Shown here: positions 2,775-30,014 of the stretch, one piece after another
How the letters are laid out: each line of letters starts with the position of its first letter
How positions within the stretch are numbered: position 1 is the first letter of the stretch
Source of the DNA: an uncultured Chloroflexia bacterium
GTDB taxonomy: Bacteria; Chloroflexota; Anaerolineae; Anaerolineales; Anaerolineaceae
Length of the DNA: 32,000 nt
Reading direction: 5' to 3'
NCBI GenBank assembly: GCA_963704755.1
Contig: OY969938.1
Span: 1,500,001-1,532,000, forward strand
Notes under the pieces: generated by a model
Told to the model about the DNA's origin: nothing
The model's database searches: none
Seen by the model: only the letters and a program-made list of their open reading frames with translations
Translations under genes and position numbers: made by a program

Positions 2775-4172
2775 TTACATCTGGACGGTCTGGCCGACCA
2801 CGTTGTGCGCCGCTTCCATAATCACCTCGCTCAGGGTGGGGTGCGCGTGCACGTTGCGGGCAATCTGTTCGGCGGTCAATTCCATGCTCTGCGCCAGGGT
2901 CAACTCAGGCAGCAGTTCCGACACATCCGGCCCGATCATATGAGCCCCCAGGATCTCGCCGTATTTCGCGTCGGTGACAATTTTGACCCAGCCCACGTAG
3001 TCGCCCAACCCCAGGGCCTTGCCGTTGGGCTGGAAGGGGAATTTGCCGACTTTGACCTCATAGCCTTGTTCTTTGGCCTGGGCTTCCGTCAGCCCAAAGG
3101 AAGCCACCTGCGGCTGGCAGTAGGTAGCCCGCGGCATCATACGATAATCCAGCGTGACCGTCTCTGCCCCGGCGATATTCTCGGCGCAAATGATACCCAT
3201 GGCCGAGGCCACGTGGGCCAGCAGCAGCCGGCCGGTCACGTCGCCAATCGCCCAGATACCGGGGACGTTGGTCGCCATGCGGTCGTCCACCTGGATAAAG
3301 CCGCGCTCATTGATTTGCACGCCCACTGCTTCCAGGCCCATATCCTTCGAATTCGGCCGGAAACCGATCGCTACCAGGGTCTGGTCGGCATCCAGGGTCT
3401 TTTCGTTGCTGCCATCCGACACTTTTACCTGCACGCCTTTGTCCGTGGGGGTGATACCCAGGACTTTGGTATCGGTCATAATGTCGATGCCGCGTTTCTT
3501 GAGCGCCTTGGCCAGCTCGGCGCTGACTTCCTCATCTTCGAGCGGCAGCACCCGCGGCAGCATTTCCACAATGGTCACCTTGCTGCCATATGAACTCCAC
3601 ACAGTGGCGAACTCGACGCCGATCGCGCCGGCGCCGATAATGACCACCGATTTGGGCATGCGGGTTTGCAAGATCGCTTCCCGGAAAGTGAGTACTTTTT
3701 CGCCGTCGGCCTGTACACCCGGGATCATAAACGGTTTTGTGCCGGTTGCGATGATAATGTCTTTTGCCTGCAAATCCTGGGTTTTACCATCTTTATCGGT
3801 CACCCGGACCTGGTCTTTCGCCGTTAAGGTCGCCGTGCCCATATAGACGTCGATATTATTCTTTTTCATCAAGAAGCCGACGCCCTGGGTCAACCGCTTG
3901 GACACCTTGCGGCTGCGATCCACTGCGACACTGTAATCCAGCTTGAGATTGTCATAAGAAATCCCGAACTCGGCCGCCCTTTCTCGCAAGGTATGGGCCA
4001 GTTCGGCATTTTTCAGCAGCGATTTCGATGGAATACAGCCAATGTTCAGGCAAATCCCGCCCAGGAACTCTTTATCCACAATGGCGGCTTTTTTACCCAA
4101 CTGCGTAGCGCGAATAGCCGCAACGTATCCACCCGGACCTGCTCCAATAACGACGACGTCATATTCACTCAT
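2775..4172 (-). CDS. lpdA: Dihydrolipoyl dehydrogenase (E3)
   Basis: 465-aa ORF. N-terminal FAD fold VVVIGAGPGGYVAAIRA, redox-active disulfide GGICLNIGCIPSK, second Rossmann fold VVIIGAGAIGVEFA, C-terminal HAHPTLSE interface motif. GAGGA lies 7 nt upstream of the ATG. Confidence 0.95.
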   Translation of the reverse strand: MSEYDVVVIGAGPGGYVAAIRATQLGKKAAIVDKEFLGGICLNIGCIPSKSLLKNAELAHTLRERAAEFGISYDNLKLDYSVAVDRSRKVSKRLTQGVGFLMKKNNIDVYMGTATLTAKDQVRVTDKDGKTQDLQAKDIIIATGTKPFMIPGVQADGEKVLTFREAILQTRMPKSVVIIGAGAIGVEFATVWSSYGSKVTIVEMLPRVLPLEDEEVSAELAKALKKRGIDIMTDTKVLGITPTDKGVQVKVSDGSNEKTLDADQTLVAIGFRPNSKDMGLEAVGVQINERGFIQVDDRMATNVPGIWAIGDVTGRLLLAHVASAMGIICAENIAGAETVTLDYRMMPRATYCQPQVASFGLTEAQAKEQGYEVKVGKFPFQPNGKALGLGDYVGWVKIVTDAKYGEILGAHMIGPDVSELLPELTLAQSMELTAEQIARNVHAHPTLSEVIMEAAHNVVGQTVQM

Positions 4173-4281: not shown

Positions 4282-4394
4282 GTAACTACCCAGGCCTATG
4301 TTAAGGAGTTCCCTGAATTTGAGGTGTTTGCAGGGGCGAAGCCCCTGCAAACACCTCAAATTCAGGGTTCTTACCTGACAGGCCAAGCAGTTAC
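4282..4394. repeat. Palindromic ~110-bp element, copy 1 (perfect 27-bp-arm hairpin flanked by conserved end motifs)
   Basis: Left motif GTAACTACCCAGG (4282-4294). Perfect arms CCCTGAATTTGAGGTGTTTGCAGGGGC (4311-4337) and its exact reverse complement (4341-4367), loop GAA. Right motif CCAAGCAGTTAC (4383-4394). Same architecture as 24055-24163 and 28327-28435. Confidence 0.75.
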
Positions 4395-8416: not shown

Positions 8417-9014
8417 CTCCCCCAAAATCCGCATTTGTTGCCAGGCTTTGCCCGTAACTCACCATCCCCGTTGGCCGGCGCTTCGCCCTCATCCTTCTCC
8501 CAGAAGCGGGAGAAGGGTTGCCTTGCTGCCAGAAGGCCGCTTTTAACCAGCGGTTCCCCTAATATTCGCACTTTGGATTTAAAAAAGGGTGGGTGCAGGG
8601 CTCATACGCAATACCGGTGGATCACCGGGCGGAAAAACATGCCAGGCCTTGCCCGTAACCCACCATCCCCGTTGGCCGGCGCTTCGCCCTCATCCTCCGG
8701 CCCCTTCTCCCTGAAGCGGGAGAAGGGGTGCCTTGCTGCCAGAAGGCCGTTTTTAACCAGCGGTTCCCCTAATATTCGCACTTTGGATTTGAAAAAATGT
8801 AGGGTGGGTGCAGGGCTCATACGCAATACCGGTGAATCACCGGGCGGTAAAACATGCCAGGCCTTGCCCGTAACCCACCATCCCCGTTGGCCGGCGCTTC
8901 GCCCTCATCCTCCGGCACCTTCTCCCTGAAGCGGGAGAAGGGGTGCCTTGCTGCCAGAAGGCCACTTTTAACCGGCGGTTCCCCTGAAATCCGCACTTTA
9001 GATTTTGGGGGAGG
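8417..9014. repeat. Tandem array of three ~200-215-bp units, non-coding
   Basis: Units start at GCCAGGC at 8440, 8641 and 8856 (periods 201 and 215). Units 2 and 3 differ by only a handful of substitutions over ~150 nt. Each unit has TTGCCCGTAAC[CT]CACCAT, GGCGCTTCGCC and an 11-bp hairpin CCCCTTCTCCC-tgaagc-GGGAGAAGGGG. Units 1 and 2 additionally end in a (GTA)GGGTGGGTGCAGGGCTCAT module; the truncated third unit lacks it. The array is bracketed by CCTCCCCCAAAATC (8417-8430) and its reverse complement GATTTTGGGGGAGG (9001-9014). Confidence 0.85.
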
Positions 9015-9077
9015 AATGGAAAGAGAAAAAAGTTGACCGGGCGACAAGGGAAAGAAGGACCCGCTGTCGTCTGCCCG

Positions 9078-16266: not shown

Positions 16267-17085
16267 TCAAATTTCGGGCGTCCAAAATTGCAGGTTGGCA
16301 CGCCCAATCCGCACGGCAAACTGGCGGCCGCGCTCGAAGGCGGAAAAGTCAACCGTGGGCAGCAACGAAAGCTCGCGGGCCGTGGTTGGGTCTTCGATAT
16401 AACCGGTCAGGCGCGACCGAAACAGGCTGATCCACTGGGGGTGTTGGCGGGCCGTTTGTACATCGCAGGCCACCACCGGCCAGACCTGGTAAAAGGGTCC
16501 TTCTTGCAGCAGCCATTCGAAATTCAGGCGCACATCGAAGTCCATATATGGCAGGGTATCCATGCCATCCAGGATGACCAGGTGGGCGCCACCGCTCATC
16601 CGCCCGTGCTGGCGGCTTTCGATCAAGTCGCAGGCCGCAAGGATCGCATCGGCCGCGTCGCGCTCGTAATTGGAGGTGATCACCTTGAAGTAGTCGCCGT
16701 AACGGTTTTCCTCGAGCGACCACTGCCCGGGCTTGGCGCTGATCACGCTGAATTGGACTTCATACGGTCGGTTGGTCCGCAGTAAAGAATGCACCATCGT
16801 TTTAATCAGGCCGGTCTTGCCGGCATAACGCTCGCCCACGATCAGCAAAGACCCCGGGCGGGGATCGTTCAGATCGAACAAAACCGGGGTATGCTCACTG
16901 CTCTCGCCTAAAATCGCGGTCTGCAGCGGTAAAGCCGGCATTTGCCGGATCAGGTCATTCAGGCTGGCCGGCTTTGATCCGGGCGTCTGCTGCCCGCCGC
17001 GGAGTGGAGTGCCAACCCGGGTGTTCCAGGCCGGAAACGCATGCGCGTCCATTTTTGTATTTACAATCGGTAGAGCTACCATCAC
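16267..17085 (-). CDS. Stand-alone FtsK/SpoIIIE-like P-loop ATPase domain protein
   Basis: 272-aa ORF. Walker A LLIVGERYAGKTGL, Walker B-like HLVILDGMDTL. The overall layout resembles a single FtsK/EssC-type ATPase domain. Start is GTG at 17085 or ATG at 17082. Confidence 0.75.
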   Translation of the reverse strand: MMVALPIVNTKMDAHAFPAWNTRVGTPLRGGQQTPGSKPASLNDLIRQMPALPLQTAILGESSEHTPVLFDLNDPRPGSLLIVGERYAGKTGLIKTMVHSLLRTNRPYEVQFSVISAKPGQWSLEENRYGDYFKVITSNYERDAADAILAACDLIESRQHGRMSGGAHLVILDGMDTLPYMDFDVRLNFEWLLQEGPFYQVWPVVACDVQTARQHPQWISLFRSRLTGYIEDPTTARELSLLPTVDFSAFERGRQFAVRIGRANLQFWTPEI

Positions 17086-17129
17086 GATGAACCTTTCGTA
17101 TCGAAAACGATTTGCATCGGTAAATAGGT

Positions 17130-17159
17130 ATTATGTTCTAAAACAGTATAGAACATAAT
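17130..17159. promoter_or_regulatory. Candidate operator: 11-bp perfect inverted repeat overlapping the -10 element
   Basis: ATTATGTTCTA (17130-17140), 8-nt spacer, TAGAACATAAT (17149-17159). It overlaps the spacer, the -10 and the predicted transcription start of the promoter above. Confidence 0.5.
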
Positions 17160-17173
17160 TACTAGAGAGTCAA
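17145..17173 (-). promoter_or_regulatory. Sigma-70-type promoter for the FtsK-like gene
   Basis: Minus strand reads TTGACT (17173-17168), a 17-nt spacer, then TATACT (17150-17145), about 60 nt upstream of the start codon. Confidence 0.6.
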
Positions 17174-17220
17174 GTACTTAATGTAAGAGTGTTGAAAAAC
17201 ACCTTCATATAAAAATTTTT

Positions 17221-17267
17221 GGGATAAATGTGGCGGGGCGGCTTCGCCGCCCCGCCACATTTATCCC
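17221..17267. terminator. Perfect 22-bp-arm hairpin, possible bidirectional terminator or insulator
   Basis: GGGATAAATGTGGCGGGGCGGC-ttc-GCCGCCCCGCCACATTTATCCC. GC-rich top, with ATAAAT/ATTTAT at the base. It lies between the IS and the FtsK-like promoter. Confidence 0.4.
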
Positions 17268-17545
17268 AATTCGGATGATGAAAAGCGACTTTTTCATCAC
17301 CCTCTAATGTTCGTTGTGGGGAAACCCAAGATACCGTTTTGGCTTTCTCGTATTCACTTTACAAAAATCAGGATTTTTGCCATCGCGAGCCCTGGTCGCA
17401 ATGACAACCCTTCCTTGAGAAAGCCATGTAGACACAGTCAGGGCGATTGCAACCGGCCTGCTTTTCGAGGGCAGTTCCCCAAAGAATGGGTTTTTGGGAC
17501 TAAATTGGGATGATGCGATTGCCCTGTAGACACAGTTTCCCTCCA

Positions 17546-18839
17546 CGTGGTGCCTCAAAATAAAATGTTACTTTGGGATAATCGTTGCCTCAAATAGAAA
17601 TGTTACCGGAGAATTCTTAACAATTGATTGACCTTTTTATTGATACTGGCCTGTAAGGACACAGGGTTCAGATGAACATATTGGGCAGTAAGACTGGCCT
17701 TGACTTTCAGGGGAAGAGAGTCCTGGGCTAAGACCCGGCGATAGGGGGTCTTGGCCAGATCATACTTACGGATCGTCTTGCCGTCAACGGTTTCTTTAGC
17801 AATCAGTTTGAGAACTGGCTGGAAAAAATTGATGTAAAGACGCAAATCGGAGTAAATGGATTTGAGCAAGGCAAGTTCTTGTGGGGTTTCGAAGCGGTCA
17901 TAGCCAATGGTATGTCGAACAACCGACCAATTCTTCTGTTCCACATGAGCCTGATCATTCTTGTGGTAAGGCCGCGAACGCGTAAAGGTAATGAGTTCGC
18001 TCTGGCAGTATCGCAAAAGTGTATCGTTGATGAATTCACTGCCATTGTCTGAATCCAATCCCAAAAGAGGAAAAGGCAGGTTATGGCGCAATTCCTCAAT
18101 GGCTTGAGAGACAGCTGTCTGGGTTTTGTTGGCCAGGCCCAGGCACTCGGTCCAGCCGGTGGCTAAATCGGTTGCAGTGAGGGTATTGAGGTAGGTACCC
18201 TCGGTGGTTGTACCACAATGGGCCACCAGGTCGATTTCCAGAAAGCCTGGCTTCTCGTCCTCCCAAGGGGTAAAGGTGCGGATGGGAATGGCTTGTTTGA
18301 GCAAACTGCCCGGTTTGGTAGTCCCAAGCCCACGTGGGGTGGGGGCGAGGCGTGCCTTTTTCAAACAGCGATCTATGGTGGCCCGGCTCAAGCTCAACAA
18401 AAGCGCTTTGGTTTCCTCGCTCAACTCTATTTCCTGCCAGCGCTCTAAAACATCCACCATTTCAGGAATAAAAGGCTGTAGTCGTTTTGAGCAGATGCAC
18501 CCACTAACTTCCCAAATCTTTTCCAGAGCCACGACGACTTCCCCGTTGTATTTCTTCCGTCGCCCGGCTTTCTTCAACCCCTTTGGCTTGGAACCATGCT
18601 TCAACAGCCGAATAGCGTATTTACGATGATATCCGCTTGTGGCGATAAATTCATCCAGAATCTGTTTCTTCTCGGCTTTCCTGGCTTTCAAATAGCGCGG
18701 ACGAATGCTTTCTAGCATCTCCCGCCGACTGCGTTGACTCATCATGAGCTCCCTCTGCGGTGCTTTATTCCGCGTTAGGGTAACATTTATTTTGAGCCAA
18801 CGTTATTTCGCAAAGTAAGATTAATTGTGAGGCAATTCG
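17546..18839 (-). mobile_element. Insertion sequence, 1294 bp, single rve/DDE transposase (ISNCY/IS481-like; family uncertain)
   Basis: ~60-bp imperfect terminal inverted repeats: CGTGGTGCCTCAAAATAAAATGTTACTTTGGGATAATCGTTGCCTCAAATAGAAATGTTACC versus the reverse complement of 18779-18839. 5-bp direct repeat CTCCA at 17541-17545 and 18840-18844. Visibly lower GC than the flanks. Confidence 0.85.
17603..18745 (-). CDS. DDE (rve/integrase-core) transposase
   Basis: 380-aa ORF. N-terminal HTH-like region (ILDEFIATSGYHRKYAIRLL). Catalytic candidates in FLEIDLVAH, LDSDNGSEFIN and HVEQKNWSVVR. AGGGAG lies 4 nt upstream of the ATG. Confidence 0.9.
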   Translation of the reverse strand: MMSQRSRREMLESIRPRYLKARKAEKKQILDEFIATSGYHRKYAIRLLKHGSKPKGLKKAGRRKKYNGEVVVALEKIWEVSGCICSKRLQPFIPEMVDVLERWQEIELSEETKALLLSLSRATIDRCLKKARLAPTPRGLGTTKPGSLLKQAIPIRTFTPWEDEKPGFLEIDLVAHCGTTTEGTYLNTLTATDLATGWTECLGLANKTQTAVSQAIEELRHNLPFPLLGLDSDNGSEFINDTLLRYCQSELITFTRSRPYHKNDQAHVEQKNWSVVRHTIGYDRFETPQELALLKSIYSDLRLYINFFQPVLKLIAKETVDGKTIRKYDLAKTPYRRVLAQDSLPLKVKASLTAQYVHLNPVSLQASINKKVNQLLRILR

Positions 18840-22129: not shown

Positions 22130-22271
22130 AACCACGGAGCACGGAGAAGAAAAAACAAAAGAGGAAGAAATTAACCACACAGGACACAGAGAGAAAAGAG
22201 TTTAAGAAAAGTAAAGAGGGTTTGTTAAAAGTGATCGGCCCGGTCTCCAGACCGAGGCCGATCTGCTTTTT
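22130..22271 (+). repeat. Composite post-stop repeat (SD-like octamer tract plus hairpin plus T-run), copy downstream of glpX
   Basis: Begins 6 nt after the glpX TAA: AACCACGGAGCACGGAGAAGAAAAAACAAAAGAGGAAG...AACCACACAGGACACAGAGAG. Then hairpin GATCGGCCCGGTCTCCAGACCGAGGCCGATC (22233-22263), followed by TGCTTTTT. Confidence 0.65.
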
Positions 22272-22318
22272 ATAATCCTTCTTTCCTACCCTTAAGCTCT
22301 TTCCTTATCGGTAGCGCT

Positions 22319-22493
22319 GTAGGGTAGGTGAAGGGCTCATTAACACTACTGGTGACTTACACACCGGCAAGACCTACGAAACCTTGCCCGTAACTCACCA
22401 TTATGTACGGATGGTGGGTTACGGGCAATTCCTGGGTTGAGGTAGTTGCTCTTTGTTCGCAAGTGTTATGAATGAGCCCTGCACCCACCCTAC
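22319..22493. repeat. 175-bp REP-like composite palindromic element
   Basis: Outer arms GTAGGGTAGGTGAAGGGCTCAT (22319-22340) and ATGAGCCCTGCACCCACCCTAC (22472-22493). Central hairpin TTGCCCGTAACTCACCAT (22384-22401), 9-nt loop, ATGGTGGGTTACGGGCAA (22411-22428), with one G-T position. Both modules recur in the 8417-9014 array. Confidence 0.7.
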
Positions 22494-22502
22494 GGCTAAT
22501 TG

Positions 22503-23924: not shown

Positions 23925-24054
23925 GCAAACCTCAAGGGGCACCTGATAATGGCTGAATCTTGCTCAAGGCCTATCCAAAAAGCAATTCGAGTGTTTATCT
24001 CTAGTGGCTGGCCGATCAGGATGAGCACCTGGCTGTCTTTTTGATCCATCGTAT

Positions 24055-24163
24055 TAACTACTCAGTCCAGTTCAAAGCGGGAGATTGTTTTGTAGTTTTT
24101 CGCGTGCTTTGCACGCGAAAAACTACAAAACAACCGACCTCTCCTGGATAGTTGAGCAGTTAC
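24055..24163. repeat. Palindromic ~110-bp element, copy 2 (perfect 23-bp-arm hairpin flanked by conserved end motifs)
   Basis: TAACTACTCAG (24055-24065). Perfect arms TTGTTTTGTAGTTTTTCGCGTGC (24085-24107) and reverse complement (24111-24133), loop TTT. GTTGAGCAGTTAC (24151-24163). Inner flanks also pair (TCCAG/CTGGA, GGGAG/CTCTCC). Confidence 0.75.
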
Positions 24164-25677: not shown

Positions 25678-26505
25678 TTATCTCCCCAGCCAAAGGATCG
25701 CGACGGCGGCAGCGAGGGACGCCAGGGTAAACCAGGCGTCTTTCCAGGTGAAGTGCATCACGAACATGGAGGTGCGGTTTTTGCTGCTGCCGTAGCCGCG
25801 CGCATCCATGGCCAGGGCCATGGTCTCGGCCCGGCGCAGGCTGGTGAGAAAAAGCGGCAGGATCAACGGGATGACCTGGCGCACCCGTTGGAACAGGTTG
25901 CCCTTACGCGTACCCCATTCGGCGCCGCGGGAGGCCTGCGCCTTGGCGATTCGTTCGGCGGCCTGGGCCAGGAAGGGGATGAACCTCAAGGTGACCTGCA
26001 CGACCATAATCAGGTCTTGGGTGGGGATACCCAGGCGGGCCAGGGGCGAAAACAGTGATTCCAGCCCGTGAATCATCTCGGAAGAGGACAGGGTAAAGGA
26101 AAACAGGCTCAACAACAGGATCAGGGCGGCGAAACGCAACAGCAGCACCCCGGCCGCGGTCAGCCCGGCGGCATAAATGTAGATAAACCCGGCCGCGAAG
26201 ACCGGCACGGCGCCGGCGGGGTGGCCGGTCAAAAAGACCTGCAACACGGCCAGGATCAGCAAAAAAGGCAGGGGCGGCAGCAGCCCGCGTAAGGCGAACC
26301 GCAGGGGGATCCGCCCTAAAATCAGTCCGAGCAGGACGACCAGCAGCGCCAGCAGGAGACCCGGCACGTGCAAGGTGAACGTGACGGCCAGCAGGACGGC
26401 CGTGAATGACAGGATGCGGGCGCGCGGGTCCAGCCGGTGCAGGAAGGAATCGAGCGGCAGGTACTGGCCAATATTGACCATACGCAGAAACTCGAAATTA
26501 TTCAC
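25678..26505 (-). CDS. ecfT: ECF transporter transmembrane component EcfT
   Basis: Conserved N-terminus IGQYLPLDSFLHRLDPRARIL and C-terminal LAMDARGYG. GTG at 26505 is preferred because AGGAGG lies 6 nt upstream. It overlaps the ecfA stop (GTGAATAA). ATG at 26481 is the alternative. Confidence 0.9.
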   Translation of the reverse strand: MNNFEFLRMVNIGQYLPLDSFLHRLDPRARILSFTAVLLAVTFTLHVPGLLLALLVVLLGLILGRIPLRFALRGLLPPLPFLLILAVLQVFLTGHPAGAVPVFAAGFIYIYAAGLTAAGVLLLRFAALILLLSLFSFTLSSSEMIHGLESLFSPLARLGIPTQDLIMVVQVTLRFIPFLAQAAERIAKAQASRGAEWGTRKGNLFQRVRQVIPLILPLFLTSLRRAETMALAMDARGYGSSKNRTSMFVMHFTWKDAWFTLASLAAAVAILWLGR

Positions 26506-28252
26506 GGGCCGCCTCCTGAATGCGTCCCAGGTAAAGGACCAGGTCTTCCGGGCGGACCAGGTTGGGTGGCAGCGGCCAGCCACGGCTGCGCAGCGTCTCG
26601 GCCACATAGGCGACCAAGGGAGCATCCAGGCCGACCGCTTCGAGCTGGCGGATCTGGCCAAAGACCTCCGGACCAGGCCCGGCCATCAACGTGCGGCCTG
26701 CGTGGATCACGGTGACGGCGTCGCACATCTCGGCCACATCCTCCATGTAGTGCGAGGAAAGCACCTGGGTGATACCTTGGGCCTTCAACTGCTTCAGCGA
26801 ATTCAAAGTCTCGCGACGCGAAAGCGGGTCCAGCCCGGCAGTGGGCTCGTCCAGCAGCAGCACCTGGGGGTGCATGGCCAGCAGGGAGGCCAGGGCAACC
26901 TTGCGGCGCTCGCCGCCGCTGAGGGTGAAAGTCAGGCGGTCCTTGAAGCCCGTGAAATCCAGGCCGACCATTTCCATGGCTGTTCGGACGGTCTCGCGCA
27001 GGGCGGGGCCTTGTTCACCGTTCAGGCGCGGCGCGTAGGCAATTTCATCCCCGACGTACTGCTCGAAGAGCTGGTATTCCGGGTTCTGAAAAACCAACCC
27101 GGCGTAGCGCCGCACGGCCTTCAAGTCGGTGCGGCTGTCGTTGAGGTCAAACGGCCCGACAGTAACCCGGCCGGCCTGGGGCAGGAGCAGCCCGTTGAGG
27201 TGTTGCAGCAGGGTGGATTTTCCCGAGCCGGTAATCCCGATCAGGCCATGAACACCCGCTTCGACGGCTTGCAGCGAGGCGCCTTGTAGGGCCAGGTGTG
27301 CCAGGGGGGTACCGCGCAGATAAACATGCTCCAGGTCAGTGACCTGGATGAGGGGATGTATTTCTGCCGCGGGCAAGGCGGGTTCGAGCCAACCCGGCGG
27401 ACCGGGCAGGTTGCGGCTGAAAGCCGGCAGCGCGTCGATCAATTCGCTGCTGCGCAAGATGCCTTCCGGCAGGCCGGGCAGCACACTGCGCATCTGTTCA
27501 ACCAGGCGGGCAGTGTAGGGCACGTCCAGCCCCAGGGATTGCAAGTCGGCCGGGTGGCGGAAGACCTGCTCGGGTGAGCTGTCCAGGGCTACCTGGCCGT
27601 GGTTCAGCACAATCACCCGCCCGGCCTCGACCGCCTCGCGCATGAAGTGCGAAATGACGATCACGGTCAGACCTTCATCGTTCAGCCGGCGGATCAGCTT
27701 GCGCACCATTTGCCGGCCGCCCGGGTCGAGCATGGCGGTGGTCTCGTCGAAGATCACGCAGCGCGGGCGCATGGCCAACACGCCCGCCAGGGCGGCGCGC
27801 TGCATCTGGCCGGCGCTCAGCAGGTGCGGAGGCCGGCTGCGCTGATCGACCAGGCCGGTCGTCTCCAGGGCCTCATCCACCCGCTGGCGGATCTCGTCCT
27901 GGGGCAGGCCCAGGTTCTCCGGGCCGAAGGCAACGTCTTCTTCCAGCACGGCCGCCACGATCTGGTCTTCGGGGGTCTGAAAAACCATGCCGACGCTGCT
28001 GCGGATCGAGGTAAGATTCTGGGCATCGCGGGTATCCATGCCCTGGACCAGCACCCGGCCGTGGTCGGGTAACAGCAGCGCGTTCAGGTGACGGGCCAAT
28101 GTGGTTTTACCGGAGCCGTTCGCACCAACGATGGCTACGTATTCGCCTTCTTCGATCTTCAGGTTGATCCCTCGCAGGGCCGGGATGGCTTCGCCGCCGC
28201 GCACCGGATGGCTGAAGGACAGGTTTTCGATTTCAATGAATAATTGGGTCAT
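26498..28252 (-). CDS. ecfA: Fused ECF transporter ATPase (EcfA1-EcfA2, two ABC domains)
   Basis: 584-aa ORF. Two Walker A sites (GANGSGKTT, GITGSGKST), two ABC signatures (LSAGQMQR, LSGGERRK) and two Walker B sites (CVIFDETT, VLLLDEPT). Confidence 0.93.
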   Translation of the reverse strand: MTQLFIEIENLSFSHPVRGGEAIPALRGINLKIEEGEYVAIVGANGSGKTTLARHLNALLLPDHGRVLVQGMDTRDAQNLTSIRSSVGMVFQTPEDQIVAAVLEEDVAFGPENLGLPQDEIRQRVDEALETTGLVDQRSRPPHLLSAGQMQRAALAGVLAMRPRCVIFDETTAMLDPGGRQMVRKLIRRLNDEGLTVIVISHFMREAVEAGRVIVLNHGQVALDSSPEQVFRHPADLQSLGLDVPYTARLVEQMRSVLPGLPEGILRSSELIDALPAFSRNLPGPPGWLEPALPAAEIHPLIQVTDLEHVYLRGTPLAHLALQGASLQAVEAGVHGLIGITGSGKSTLLQHLNGLLLPQAGRVTVGPFDLNDSRTDLKAVRRYAGLVFQNPEYQLFEQYVGDEIAYAPRLNGEQGPALRETVRTAMEMVGLDFTGFKDRLTFTLSGGERRKVALASLLAMHPQVLLLDEPTAGLDPLSRRETLNSLKQLKAQGITQVLSSHYMEDVAEMCDAVTVIHAGRTLMAGPGPEVFGQIRQLEAVGLDAPLVAYVAETLRSRGWPLPPNLVRPEDLVLYLGRIQEAARE

Positions 28253-28326
28253 TGGTCAAGCAATTTTAACATAGCCGGGTAGTGAAATCTGTCCACAATT
28301 TCGCATATAATACTATTGTCCAAATG

Positions 28327-28435
28327 TCACTACTCAGCTACCCTGGAGGAACTGGGTGTTTTTATTATTTTTGTGTGCTTCGCACACAAAAATAATAAAA
28401 ACACCCATATCTTCTGAACCCGGTTGAGCAGTTGC
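28327..28435. repeat. Palindromic ~110-bp element, copy 3 (perfect 25-bp-arm hairpin flanked by conserved end motifs)
   Basis: TCACTACTCAG (28327-28337). Perfect arms GGGTGTTTTTATTATTTTTGTGTGC (28354-28378) and reverse complement (28382-28406), loop TTC. GTTGAGCAGTTGC (28423-28435). Confidence 0.8.
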
Positions 28436-28469: not shown

Positions 28470-29954
28470 GTGATCAACGAAACTGATACCAATCCAACAT
28501 CGACCGATACAGGACTGCACCGCAATCGCTGGCATCATTTCAGACAGCAATTCAAACCCTGGACTTCAGGGGCGTCTGCGCTGCAAAGGATGGCCCTGGT
28601 CAGCGCCGTGCTGGCTTTGCTGATCCTGCTGGTGATCGCCCTGGCCCAAATGGTATTGGCCTTCAACCCTTACCAGGGCGTATACGGACAGGTTGAACAG
28701 ATGGTGGATAACCAGCCCGACCTGGAATCGCACCTGGATTACAACGGCCTGGCTTCTGAAAACCTGGATCCCAGCCTGGATGTCCCGACAGCCCAGGCTT
28801 TAGCCGAATGGTACGCCGGCTCGACCGAATTGAAAATCTCCAGTGTAGCCGCCGAATACGGCGAGCAGAGTGCGGAAGTCCGCAACGCGATCCGCTCGAT
28901 GGGCGACCTGGCTTATGCTATCCGGCGGGTGAATGATGCCCTGCAAACGGTCACCAATGACAACCGCATTTCGCAGGAAATCAGCCAGGTGCGGCTGTAC
29001 CCGGACCGGGTCAACCCGGACCTGCTGATTTCGATTTACAATGATAGCCTGGCCGAAGTGGAATTGATCAACGAGCTGCGCGGCCAGTTGCAAGACCTGG
29101 CTACCCAGGCACGCCAGATTAGCGGGAACGCCCAGGTAAACGCGACGATCGCCATGCTCCAGGCCGATCCGCAGGACGCCTCCACGCCCGTACCGATTGC
29201 ATTGATGGTCAAAGGATATACCTCCTGGCAAAATATTCCCGACCGCTGCCAATCCTTGGAGATACAGTTCGCCGATACCGTCGCGACGCTCAACCAGATT
29301 TACCTGACCATCGACGTGGCCTGGCGTTCGGATCGGAATTGGGGTTACTCATTTTGGGAACCGGCAGCGAGCTGGGTCAACCGCAATATGGCCTGGTTGA
29401 CGGTGCTGGTGATGGCCCTGATCGCCTTTATGCTGGTAGGATTTTTTCGGAAACGAACTGCCTCAGTCAGCGTTCCACCCAAGGAACCCGGGTTCAATTT
29501 CCAGCGCTGGAGCCAGACCCACATTACCCGCCTGGTGGAAACCCAACCACGTGAGAAAGACGGCAGCCCGGATTTTTGGCGAGAGGCCAATTCATTGGTG
29601 CGCCACCTGATCGATGTGCCCGCTCCGGCGGATGCGTCCGCCAGGCGTTCGGCCCCGGCGGTAGCCCGCCTGGTGATTATCCAGCCGAACGGCCAAAAAG
29701 AAGAAAGACCCTTGCCCGATGAGGGGATTTACCGCATTGGCAGCGACCCGAGTTTCCAGGTGCCGATCAATTACCAGCGGGCCGCTTATGTGGAGCTTTG
29801 GATCCGGAAGGCCCGCTCGGGTTATTTTCTGGAGGTCATGTTCAGCGACGACCCGGTGATGGTCAACAACAAGCCGATCCGCGCCGCCCGGGCGTTGAAA
29901 CATGGCGACTTGATCGAGATGAAAGAAATTACCATCATCTATCTGGAGCAATAA
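28470..29954 (+). CDS. Membrane protein with C-terminal FHA domain
   Basis: 494-aa ORF. Hydrophobic segments MALVSAVLALLILLVIALAQMVLAF and MAWLTVLVMALIAFMLVGFF. C-terminal FHA-like YRIGSDPSFQVPIN...VMVNNKPI...LKHGDLIEM. Start (GTG 28470) is uncertain; no clear SD. Confidence 0.8.
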   Translation: MINETDTNPTSTDTGLHRNRWHHFRQQFKPWTSGASALQRMALVSAVLALLILLVIALAQMVLAFNPYQGVYGQVEQMVDNQPDLESHLDYNGLASENLDPSLDVPTAQALAEWYAGSTELKISSVAAEYGEQSAEVRNAIRSMGDLAYAIRRVNDALQTVTNDNRISQEISQVRLYPDRVNPDLLISIYNDSLAEVELINELRGQLQDLATQARQISGNAQVNATIAMLQADPQDASTPVPIALMVKGYTSWQNIPDRCQSLEIQFADTVATLNQIYLTIDVAWRSDRNWGYSFWEPAASWVNRNMAWLTVLVMALIAFMLVGFFRKRTASVSVPPKEPGFNFQRWSQTHITRLVETQPREKDGSPDFWREANSLVRHLIDVPAPADASARRSAPAVARLVIIQPNGQKEERPLPDEGIYRIGSDPSFQVPINYQRAAYVELWIRKARSGYFLEVMFSDDPVMVNNKPIRAARALKHGDLIEMKEITIIYLEQ

Positions 29955-29955
29955 G

Positions 29956-30014
29956 GAACAAAAGATATGGAGAGGGGTGCGGTTTCACCGCACCCCTCTC
30001 CATATCTTTTGTTC
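29956..30014 (+). terminator. Intrinsic terminator, perfect 28-bp-arm hairpin
   Basis: GAACAAAAGATATGGAGAGGGGTGCGGT-ttc-ACCGCACCCCTCTCCATATCTTTTGTTC, followed by TTT. It starts 2 nt after the FHA gene stop. A-tract and T-tract at the base suggest bidirectional use. Confidence 0.7.

Follow-up and report, generated by a model that had tools for sequence, protein, structure and literature searches.

The intergenic region between an ecfA-like ECF-type ABC ATPase gene (26498-28252, minus strand) and the gene for a 494-aa protein (28470-29954, plus strand) carries a palindromic element of 110 bp, raising the questions of what kind of element this is and how the long hairpin at its center has come to be free of mismatches. 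This site was originally placed between ecfA and an FHA gene; the ecfA-like neighbor is borne out, while the FHA match of the 494-aa protein is weak, C-terminal, and below the Pfam cut-off (E 0.0023).

We find three elements of shared architecture in the window, as we call the whole 32-kb stretch of DNA analyzed here: copy 1 (4282-4394, 113 bp), copy 2 (24054-24163, 110 bp), and copy 3 (28326-28435, 110 bp). All are type A fold-backs, a class described below, and score 89.5, 68.8, and 76.6 bits, respectively, against our covariance model R1, with copy 3 matched over its full length. The original prediction had described the same three loci and their common layout, with coordinates that prove correct to within 1-2 nt, as well as perfect 23-27-bp stems with 3-nt loops, which we recover in every copy: a 27-bp stem with loop GAA in copy 1 (4311-4367), a 23-bp stem with loop TTT in copy 2 (24085-24133), and a 26-bp stem with loop TTC in copy 3 (28353-28407). 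Neither the elements nor their core hairpins are assigned to a strand. The outer boundaries are terminal inverted repeats, reading GTAACTACCCAG, TTAACTACTCAG, and GTCACTACTCAG at the left and CCAAGCAGTTAC, TTGAGCAGTTAC, and TTGAGCAGTTGC at the right of copies 1, 2, and 3, with 2-3 departures per copy from the family consensus (GTAACTRCTCAG and CTGAGYAGTTAC). In copy 3 they occupy 28326-28337 and 28424-28435 (both given for the plus strand), the left one matching the ends of ISDge4. Copies 2 and 3 do share an 11-mer, GTTGAGCAGTT, as had been noted. A possible inversion of the interior of copy 2 relative to copy 3, with respect to the ends, yields 11/19 vs 8/19 matches, too weak a difference to use.

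Paired end motifs occur in the window at these three sites and no further one, and a search with R1 likewise returns exactly three full-length copies, with E-values between 1e-16 and 1e-22. Random sequence would yield a perfect stem of 23 bp or more about 5e-10 times per 32 kb; DNA-fold z-scores of the three copies, calculated on single strands, range from -7 to -11.5, and none of 200 shuffles folded equally well. Copy 3 is also present, base for base, in a separate Logan assembly (L081), which may share its strain or its reads with the window. The 8-mers on either side of the elements match at 4/8, 1/8, and 2/8 positions for copies 1, 2, and 3 (GTCCAAAT and AAAAAATA in the last case), such that a target duplication is undetectable in the window copies.

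Relatives of these elements elsewhere provide the duplications that the window copies lack. Scanning a metagenome collection with the pattern AACTRCTCARN{82,94}CTGAGYAGT identified about 126 or more elements on at least 120 contigs, in which the terminal inverted repeats of the window copies are likewise found; lengths run from 107 to 120 bp, a range set by the search pattern and from which no size constraint can be claimed. Among the matches listed, 52 of 129 elements have perfect 8-bp duplications flanking GTAAC...GTTAC, compared to 0.002 expected, and for type A these are perfect in 29 of 53 elements and match at 6-7 of 8 positions in 14 more, every one at a different locus. Copies are thus dispersed, with three in our 32 kb, two in a 3-kb contig (L008), and at least 120 contigs bearing distinct duplications. 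Among viral contigs, the end pattern had a single match, attributable to chance and lacking a hairpin, and BLAST of a type A element against plasmids gave no match.

The ends themselves point to a transposon family. One insertion sequence of the ISBst12 group (IS66 family), ISDge4 of Deinococcus geothermalis, is bounded by terminal inverted repeats GTGACTACTCAGCA and GTAACTGCTCAGCA with a direct repeat of 8 bp, and encodes a single transposase of 449 aa (PMC12898284). On pHTA426 of Geobacillus kaustophilus, an IS66-like element of the ISGka4 family, whose sequence we read directly, is bounded by GTATCTATTCAGCCCA and GGGCTGAATAGTTAC and has the duplication GACGAGTT at both flanks. In ISfinder descriptions, ends starting with GTAA and an 8-bp target duplication define this family, and both features are seen in the palindrome family. 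A fragment detected by tblastn on contig L194, only 20 nt from a type A MITE, consists of GTTACTACTCAGCC followed by a transposase C-terminus 57% identical to the protein of the pHTA426 element. With the exception of this fragment, a search of the fetched loci for an autonomous element with these ends encountered only host genes beside solitary half-sites, and no transposase of IS66/ISBst12 type lies within the 32-kb window. Judged by their terminal repeats, the family's 8-bp duplications, and cognate insertion sequence ends, the three palindromes are MITEs of IS66/ISBst12 type. The original prediction had held that their pattern is not that of a usual MITE, a view that fails in light of these repeats and duplications and of cognate insertion sequences with the same ends. 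Our literature searches returned no description of MITEs with these ends.

What lies between the ends is variable, and not always a hairpin. Among the matches listed, the same ends surround several unrelated interiors, and about 60% of end-motif pairs enclose interiors that are not of the hairpin type; a centered perfect stem of at least 11 bp occurs in 40 of 126 elements. The originally proposed association between end motifs and long stems is strong, but the motifs are not specific to the hairpin. The largest cluster among these matches, the type A fold-backs that include the window copies, holds 49 elements plus a few singletons and has the layout end, spacer of about 17 nt, central hairpin of about 25 bp, spacer, end. 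The interior of a second cluster is GTCATTGCGAGGAGCG...GCTCGCAATGAC, and several smaller clusters contain others. Sixteen of the elements with IS66-type ends among the matches listed contain GTCATTGCGAGGAGCG...AGCAATC...GATTGCT...CGCTCGCAATGAC, on contigs L084, L104-L106, L112, L120, L133, L139, L154, L168, L184, L192, and L195, and further interior types with the same ends are rich in CTACAGCCTAAA or contain GGCAGAGTTTACTCTGCC. Evidently, one set of IS66-type ends mobilizes many unrelated short cargoes. Conversely, fold-backs with perfect 19-29-bp cores (for example CGGGGCGGCATATATGGGGGTGCGTGC) also occur with other ends, CACTGAAAAAAC... or ACTAGAAG..., on L092 (98-200), L094 (1704-1800), and L022 (5986-6088), implying that the long-hairpin design is not tied to one transposase family. 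The center of a palindrome can also be lost, as seen in a 69-bp derivative on L093 (5431-5499) with intact ends GTAACTGGTCAG ... CTGAGCAGTTAC and a mostly deleted central hairpin.

The central arms had been called unrelated between copies, which does not hold once relatives are considered: the core of copy 1, CCCTGAATTTGAGGTGT, recurs in L008 and in many metagenome copies, and the core of copy 3 resembles those of L110 and of a hairpin at 2728-2766 in the window. L008 is an Anaerolinea MAG with an LpdA 73% identical to that of the window, and its 113-bp element (1450-1562), upstream of lpdA and with good ends, shares the 17 outer core bases of copy 1 but differs in the loop-proximal 10 bp and has one bulged nucleotide; the end of the contig holds a second copy, which is truncated. 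This homolog implies that cores are not free-form and that we are dealing with a dispersed repeat. The same contig also has three copies of a palindromic motif (AACCCTAAGGGTC / GACCCTTAGGGTT) at 1563-1625, between its MITE and the start of lpdA. Both mismatched and conserved cores occur in the wider family. Mismatches or bulges are found on L183 (1964-2074, 16/23 pairs) and L178 (7425-7529, 18/23), with further deviating cores on L085, L098, L108, L113, L123, and L008, and cores are conserved inside a given sublineage, as in 16 near-identical copies that share CCCGAAAAAAGGGTGTGCGAAGGGGGC at different loci. A special, non-MITE reading of the elements does not survive the existence of both kinds.

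The part of the original prediction that fares best is its proposal of strong selection for pairing or of arm-to-arm correction. Among 34 representatives, one per 88%-identity lineage and with membership decided by sequence and not by pairing, the core is 95% Watson-Crick paired, compared to 66% for the spacers and 85% for the ends; in an alignment of these lineages, the end helix is 91% paired, with its sequence conserved. Pairing stands at 0.96-0.98 at 10-21 nt from the center and drops abruptly to about 0.64 beyond 25 nt, with slid controls of the alignment about 40% paired. All 25 core pairs have changes on both sides, and none of 500 shuffles reached the observed covariation score. Pairing of the core is thus preferentially kept, and this by covariation as opposed to sequence conservation. 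The core boundary, sharp and staying at about 25 bp across lineages, is equally compatible with a selected structural module and with an inherited correction limit. Cores are also perfect in elements with degenerate ends or duplications, including L200 (2812-2924) and L131 (7417-7527), and since these two and the window copies have lost duplications, ends, or both, some form of maintenance is needed after insertion.

Evidence for how this maintenance may operate comes from the 16-copy CCCGAAAAAAGGGTGTGCGAAGGGGGC lineage, in which asymmetric spacers are identical, fixing the orientation of each copy (score 60 vs 23), and three loops occur: GCA, TGC (the reverse complement of GCA), and GTA. L094 likewise differs from L116 and L167 by inversion of an asymmetric 20-nt center. 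These inversions are taken from short-read metagenome assemblies, in which isomers share canonical k-mers where k is smaller than arm plus loop, and some of the calls may be assembly choices; flips are seen in one lineage only, with none in the four-copy L083 lineage. In the youngest members of the 16-copy lineage (L145, L187, and L088) changes affect a single arm, and in the more diverged L172 and L089 all core changes are compensated. Subject to this assembly caveat, inversions of loops and centers in otherwise identical copies suggest arm-to-arm template switching at the DNA level, making the predicted arm-to-arm correction in an extruded DNA hairpin the best-supported reading. Intramolecular template switching is, we infer, most likely what keeps the cores perfect. 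Quasipalindrome correction, known from the Ripley model and from work of the Lovett laboratory in E. coli, is predicted to turn imperfect short-loop inverted repeats into perfect ones, to change both arms together, and to allow inversion of the spacer between the arms; inversion between inverted repeats can be recA-independent.

The course of events would then be as follows. An ISBst12-group DDE transposase would recognize ends of 12-14 bp, GTAACTRCTCAG(CC), and insert an element of about 110 bp with duplication of 8 bp of target. Once inserted, the window copies would have decayed in their duplications, spacers, and ends, the central inverted repeat staying perfect. On single-stranded DNA, such as the lagging-strand template, a long perfect palindrome may fold back on itself, and in quasipalindrome correction one arm would be copied from the other by intramolecular template switching. 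A new mutation would be either erased or transferred to both arms, such that the core drifts in sequence and stays Watson-Crick perfect, and the loop could be inverted in the same event. In the window copies the duplications look saturated and the ends are only about 10% diverged, a combination that would be odd under uniform neutral decay and that may reflect loss of the flanks by rearrangement or constraint on the ends.

Two of the window copies lie between divergent genes. Copy 2 is found between an MFS gene (minus strand) and an ECF S-component gene (plus strand), and in front of copy 3 a promoter-like site, GTGAAA-18-TATAAT (28282-28311, plus strand), matches the consensus at 10 of 12 positions, a consensus match only; if used, this site would make copy 3 in its entirety part of the 5' leader of the gene at 28470. 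The likeliest role of copy 3 is that of a passenger within a divergent promoter region, its contribution being at most a strong hairpin in the 5' leader of the gene downstream. Copy 1 separates the E2 and E3 (lpdA) genes of a 2-oxoacid dehydrogenase, lying downstream of the E2 gene and 110 nt upstream of lpdA (2775-4172, minus strand). Relatives of this LpdA put the window in the Anaerolineae (Chloroflexota), with the best match from Bellilinea (78%), and a scan for them yielded L008, L022, and L072. Three genomes carry a type A hairpin 114-139 nt upstream of lpdA (window, 4282-4394; L008, 1450-1562; L072, 9815-9872), and their LpdA proteins share 71-78% identity with one another; R1 detects four loci in 1.3 Mb of lpdA neighborhoods, two of them at the lpdA-upstream position. 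As the flanks are not alignable, these hairpins may reflect orthology, an insertion hotspot, or retention. No empty insertion site was found among relatives, the nearest of which are at most 79% identical at the protein level.

The window also contains hairpins that stand alone. A perfect 28-bp hairpin with loop TTC (29956-30014) between convergent genes matches the R1 core only (37.5 bits), has no ends, and scores as a good bidirectional terminator on both strands in a terminator scan. Another, with a perfect 24-bp stem and loop TTC (17219-17269), lies downstream of an rve-integrase ORF and matches the R1 core only (29-31 bits), with no recognizable MITE ends. A third, directly after the lpdA stop codon (2728-2766), pairs over 16 bp around a 7-nt loop, matches the R1 core only (15 bits), and begins its arm with TGGGTGTTTTT, like the core of copy 3. 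None of the three is assigned to a strand. They may be MITE core relics whose ends are gone. Perfect stems of at least 18 bp number five in the 32-kb window vs eight in 1.31 Mb of lpdA neighborhoods from 80 related Anaerolineae genomes. The 17219-17269 hairpin is flanked by the rve-type integrase ORF (17603-18745, minus strand) and an FtsK/SpoIIIE-like ORF (16267-17085, minus strand); GC content dips to 0.52 within 16267-18745, which may be part of an integrated element.

Other repeats in the window are of different make-up. At 8439-9018, a unit of about 212 bp occurs in three tandem copies, 93-96% alike, with a hairpin CCCTTCTCCCTGAAGCGGGAGAAGGG and motifs TTGCCCGTAACYCACCAT and GTAGGGTGGGTGCAGGGCTCAT; both motifs return in an imperfect palindrome of about 180 bp just downstream of the MFS gene (22316-22496), and together these look like a second repeat family. 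An imperfect palindrome of about 110 bp at 22194-22303, AAAGAGTTTAAG ... CTTAAGCTCTTTC around hairpin GATCGGCCCGGTCTCCAGACCGAGGCCGATC, gives a weak full-length R1 match (18 bits) and is without IS66-type ends.

We also considered readings of the elements as known types of structured RNA. Rfam 15 gives no matches in the window at gathering thresholds, and sub-threshold matches to eukaryotic miRNA precursors, including mir-548 (24083-24135 and 28346-28414), reflect generic long hairpins and not homology to a curated RNA family. REP-like, riboswitch, and intrinsic terminator readings of copies 1-3 were likewise rejected.

Selection could in principle do the work that we ascribe to template switching. 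One such account would have the hairpin kept by selection on the transposon, for example because a cruciform helps to join the ends or to mobilize the element; only masters with intact cores would leave descendants, and the window copies would be younger than their lost duplications suggest. Consistent with this idea, core length and boundary are constant across the 34 lineages, covariation is strong at the level of the family, and interiors sharing these ends are nearly all strongly self-complementary; most sampled copies are, moreover, young, with intact duplications, so that their pairing mirrors that of their masters. However, the cores of the window copies, L200, and L131 are perfect despite missing duplications, ends, or both, several interiors without a long central hairpin still show perfect target duplications, and the element length, set by our pattern, cannot be called upon as a size constraint. 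We consider selection on the transposon unlikely as the main explanation, though less so than recruitment by the host, which strikes us as rather improbable. Under the latter, the hairpins would be candidate bidirectional terminators or insulators, stabilizers of 5' leaders, or RNase III sites, with selection on both transcribed strands forbidding G-U pairs. The stand-alone hairpin at 29956-30014, terminator-like on both strands between convergent genes, is in keeping with such a role, as are a sublineage of textbook bidirectional terminator form (AAAAAA, GC-rich stem, TTTTTT), the leader position that the promoter-like site at 28282-28311 would give to copy 3, and the recurrence of a type A hairpin upstream of lpdA in the window, L008, and L072. 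Against it, copies 1-3 went unflagged in the terminator scan and have A-rich 3' arms with no U-tract on either strand (the 5' arm of copy 3 is T/G-rich on both), in agreement with the original prediction that these are not plain terminators. Type A elements, by crude longest-ORF calls that are indicative only, lie in a tandem context in 29 cases, a divergent one in 7, and a convergent one in just 2, giving no sign of general terminator use, no bacterial Rfam family applies, and loop inversions are unexplained by selection alone. Selection for transposition competence and host recruitment may each add to correction.

Two further accounts set transposition aside and are, in our estimation, hardly credible. 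The elements superficially resemble integron attC sites, in which conserved inverse core sites surround a variable folded center for site-specific recombination: they have inverted ends with AAC...GTT, a variable palindromic center, and a length of about 110 bp. Yet the family has 8-bp target duplications and ends equal to IS66/ISBst12 terminal inverted repeats, these ends (GTAACTAC... and ...GCAGTTAC) do not fit RYYYAAC / GTTRRRY, and copies are scattered singly between housekeeping genes with no one-way cassette arrays and no integron integrase among the flanking ORFs. Nor do we give any real weight to a coincidence of unrelated hairpins or terminators with chance end motifs, or to assembly artefacts. 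Other long perfect hairpins without ends do exist in the window, and the 56-bp perfect palindrome on L185, which continues into its flanks, may be an assembly artefact and was left out of consideration; but the restriction of paired end motifs to three sites, the R1 E-values, the homologous copies on at least 120 other contigs, and the reproduction of copy 3 in an independent assembly all speak against this explanation.

The balance of evidence thus tips toward the window copies being old, immobile ISBst12-type MITEs whose cores are kept perfect by template-switch correction, copy 3 being most likely a passenger. More tentatively, it is possible that a self-correcting core outlives its transposon ends, and that invaded genomes accumulate diverse perfect hairpins in this way, some of which are recruited as bidirectional terminators or leaders, with the hairpins at 29956-30014 and 2728-2766 as candidates. 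For annotation, a class of conspicuous intergenic palindromes in Anaerolineae and many environmental genomes is to be read as IS66/ISBst12-type MITEs, and not as a new regulatory RNA or recombination site. The family also constitutes a natural experiment, in which dozens of lineages keep an inverted repeat of about 25 bp perfectly paired by co-variation as the neighboring sequence decays. If the loop inversions are real, it would offer a convenient system to measure hairpin-templated palindrome correction in bacterial chromosomes, and these MITE palindromes could also show whether relics seed terminators.

Finally, our results can be set against several known systems. Integron attC sites are like these elements in their conserved inverted ends, variable structured center, and similar length, but target duplications and IS-type ends set the window family apart, and it lacks RYYYAAC/GTTRRRY cores, cassette arrays, and a nearby integrase. 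Bidirectional intrinsic terminators find their counterpart in the AAAAAA-stem-TTTTTT sublineage and the stand-alone hairpin at 29956-30014, unlike copies 1-3, in which the stem is not followed by a U-tract on either strand. All three patterns predicted by quasipalindrome correction are seen in the MITE family, although here the process is deduced from comparative data alone, with the inversions drawn from metagenome assemblies.

Among transposons, the closest likeness is to the ISBst12 group of IS66, as represented by ISDge4 and the pHTA426 element: the ends correspond (GTAACTRCTCAG(CC) vs GTAACTGCTCAGCA / GTGACTACTCAGCA and GTAACTATTCAGCCC), and an 8-bp target duplication is shared by both insertion sequences and the MITE family, whereas the window elements are only about 110 bp long, have no ORF, and carry an interior unrelated to that of the insertion sequences. 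Correia elements of Neisseria, enterobacterial ERIC/IRU elements, and pneumococcal RUP elements are about 100-150 bp long, have terminal inverted repeats and target duplications, and can occupy promoters and leaders. Our family resembles them in being short, non-coding, dispersed, intergenic, and largely self-complementary. The parent elements differ, being IS630-like or IS30-like there and of IS66/ISBst12 type here, as do the duplications (TA there, 8 bp here), and, unlike those elements, the window family is built around a perfect module of about 25 bp that covaries between lineages next to spacers that are only 66% paired.
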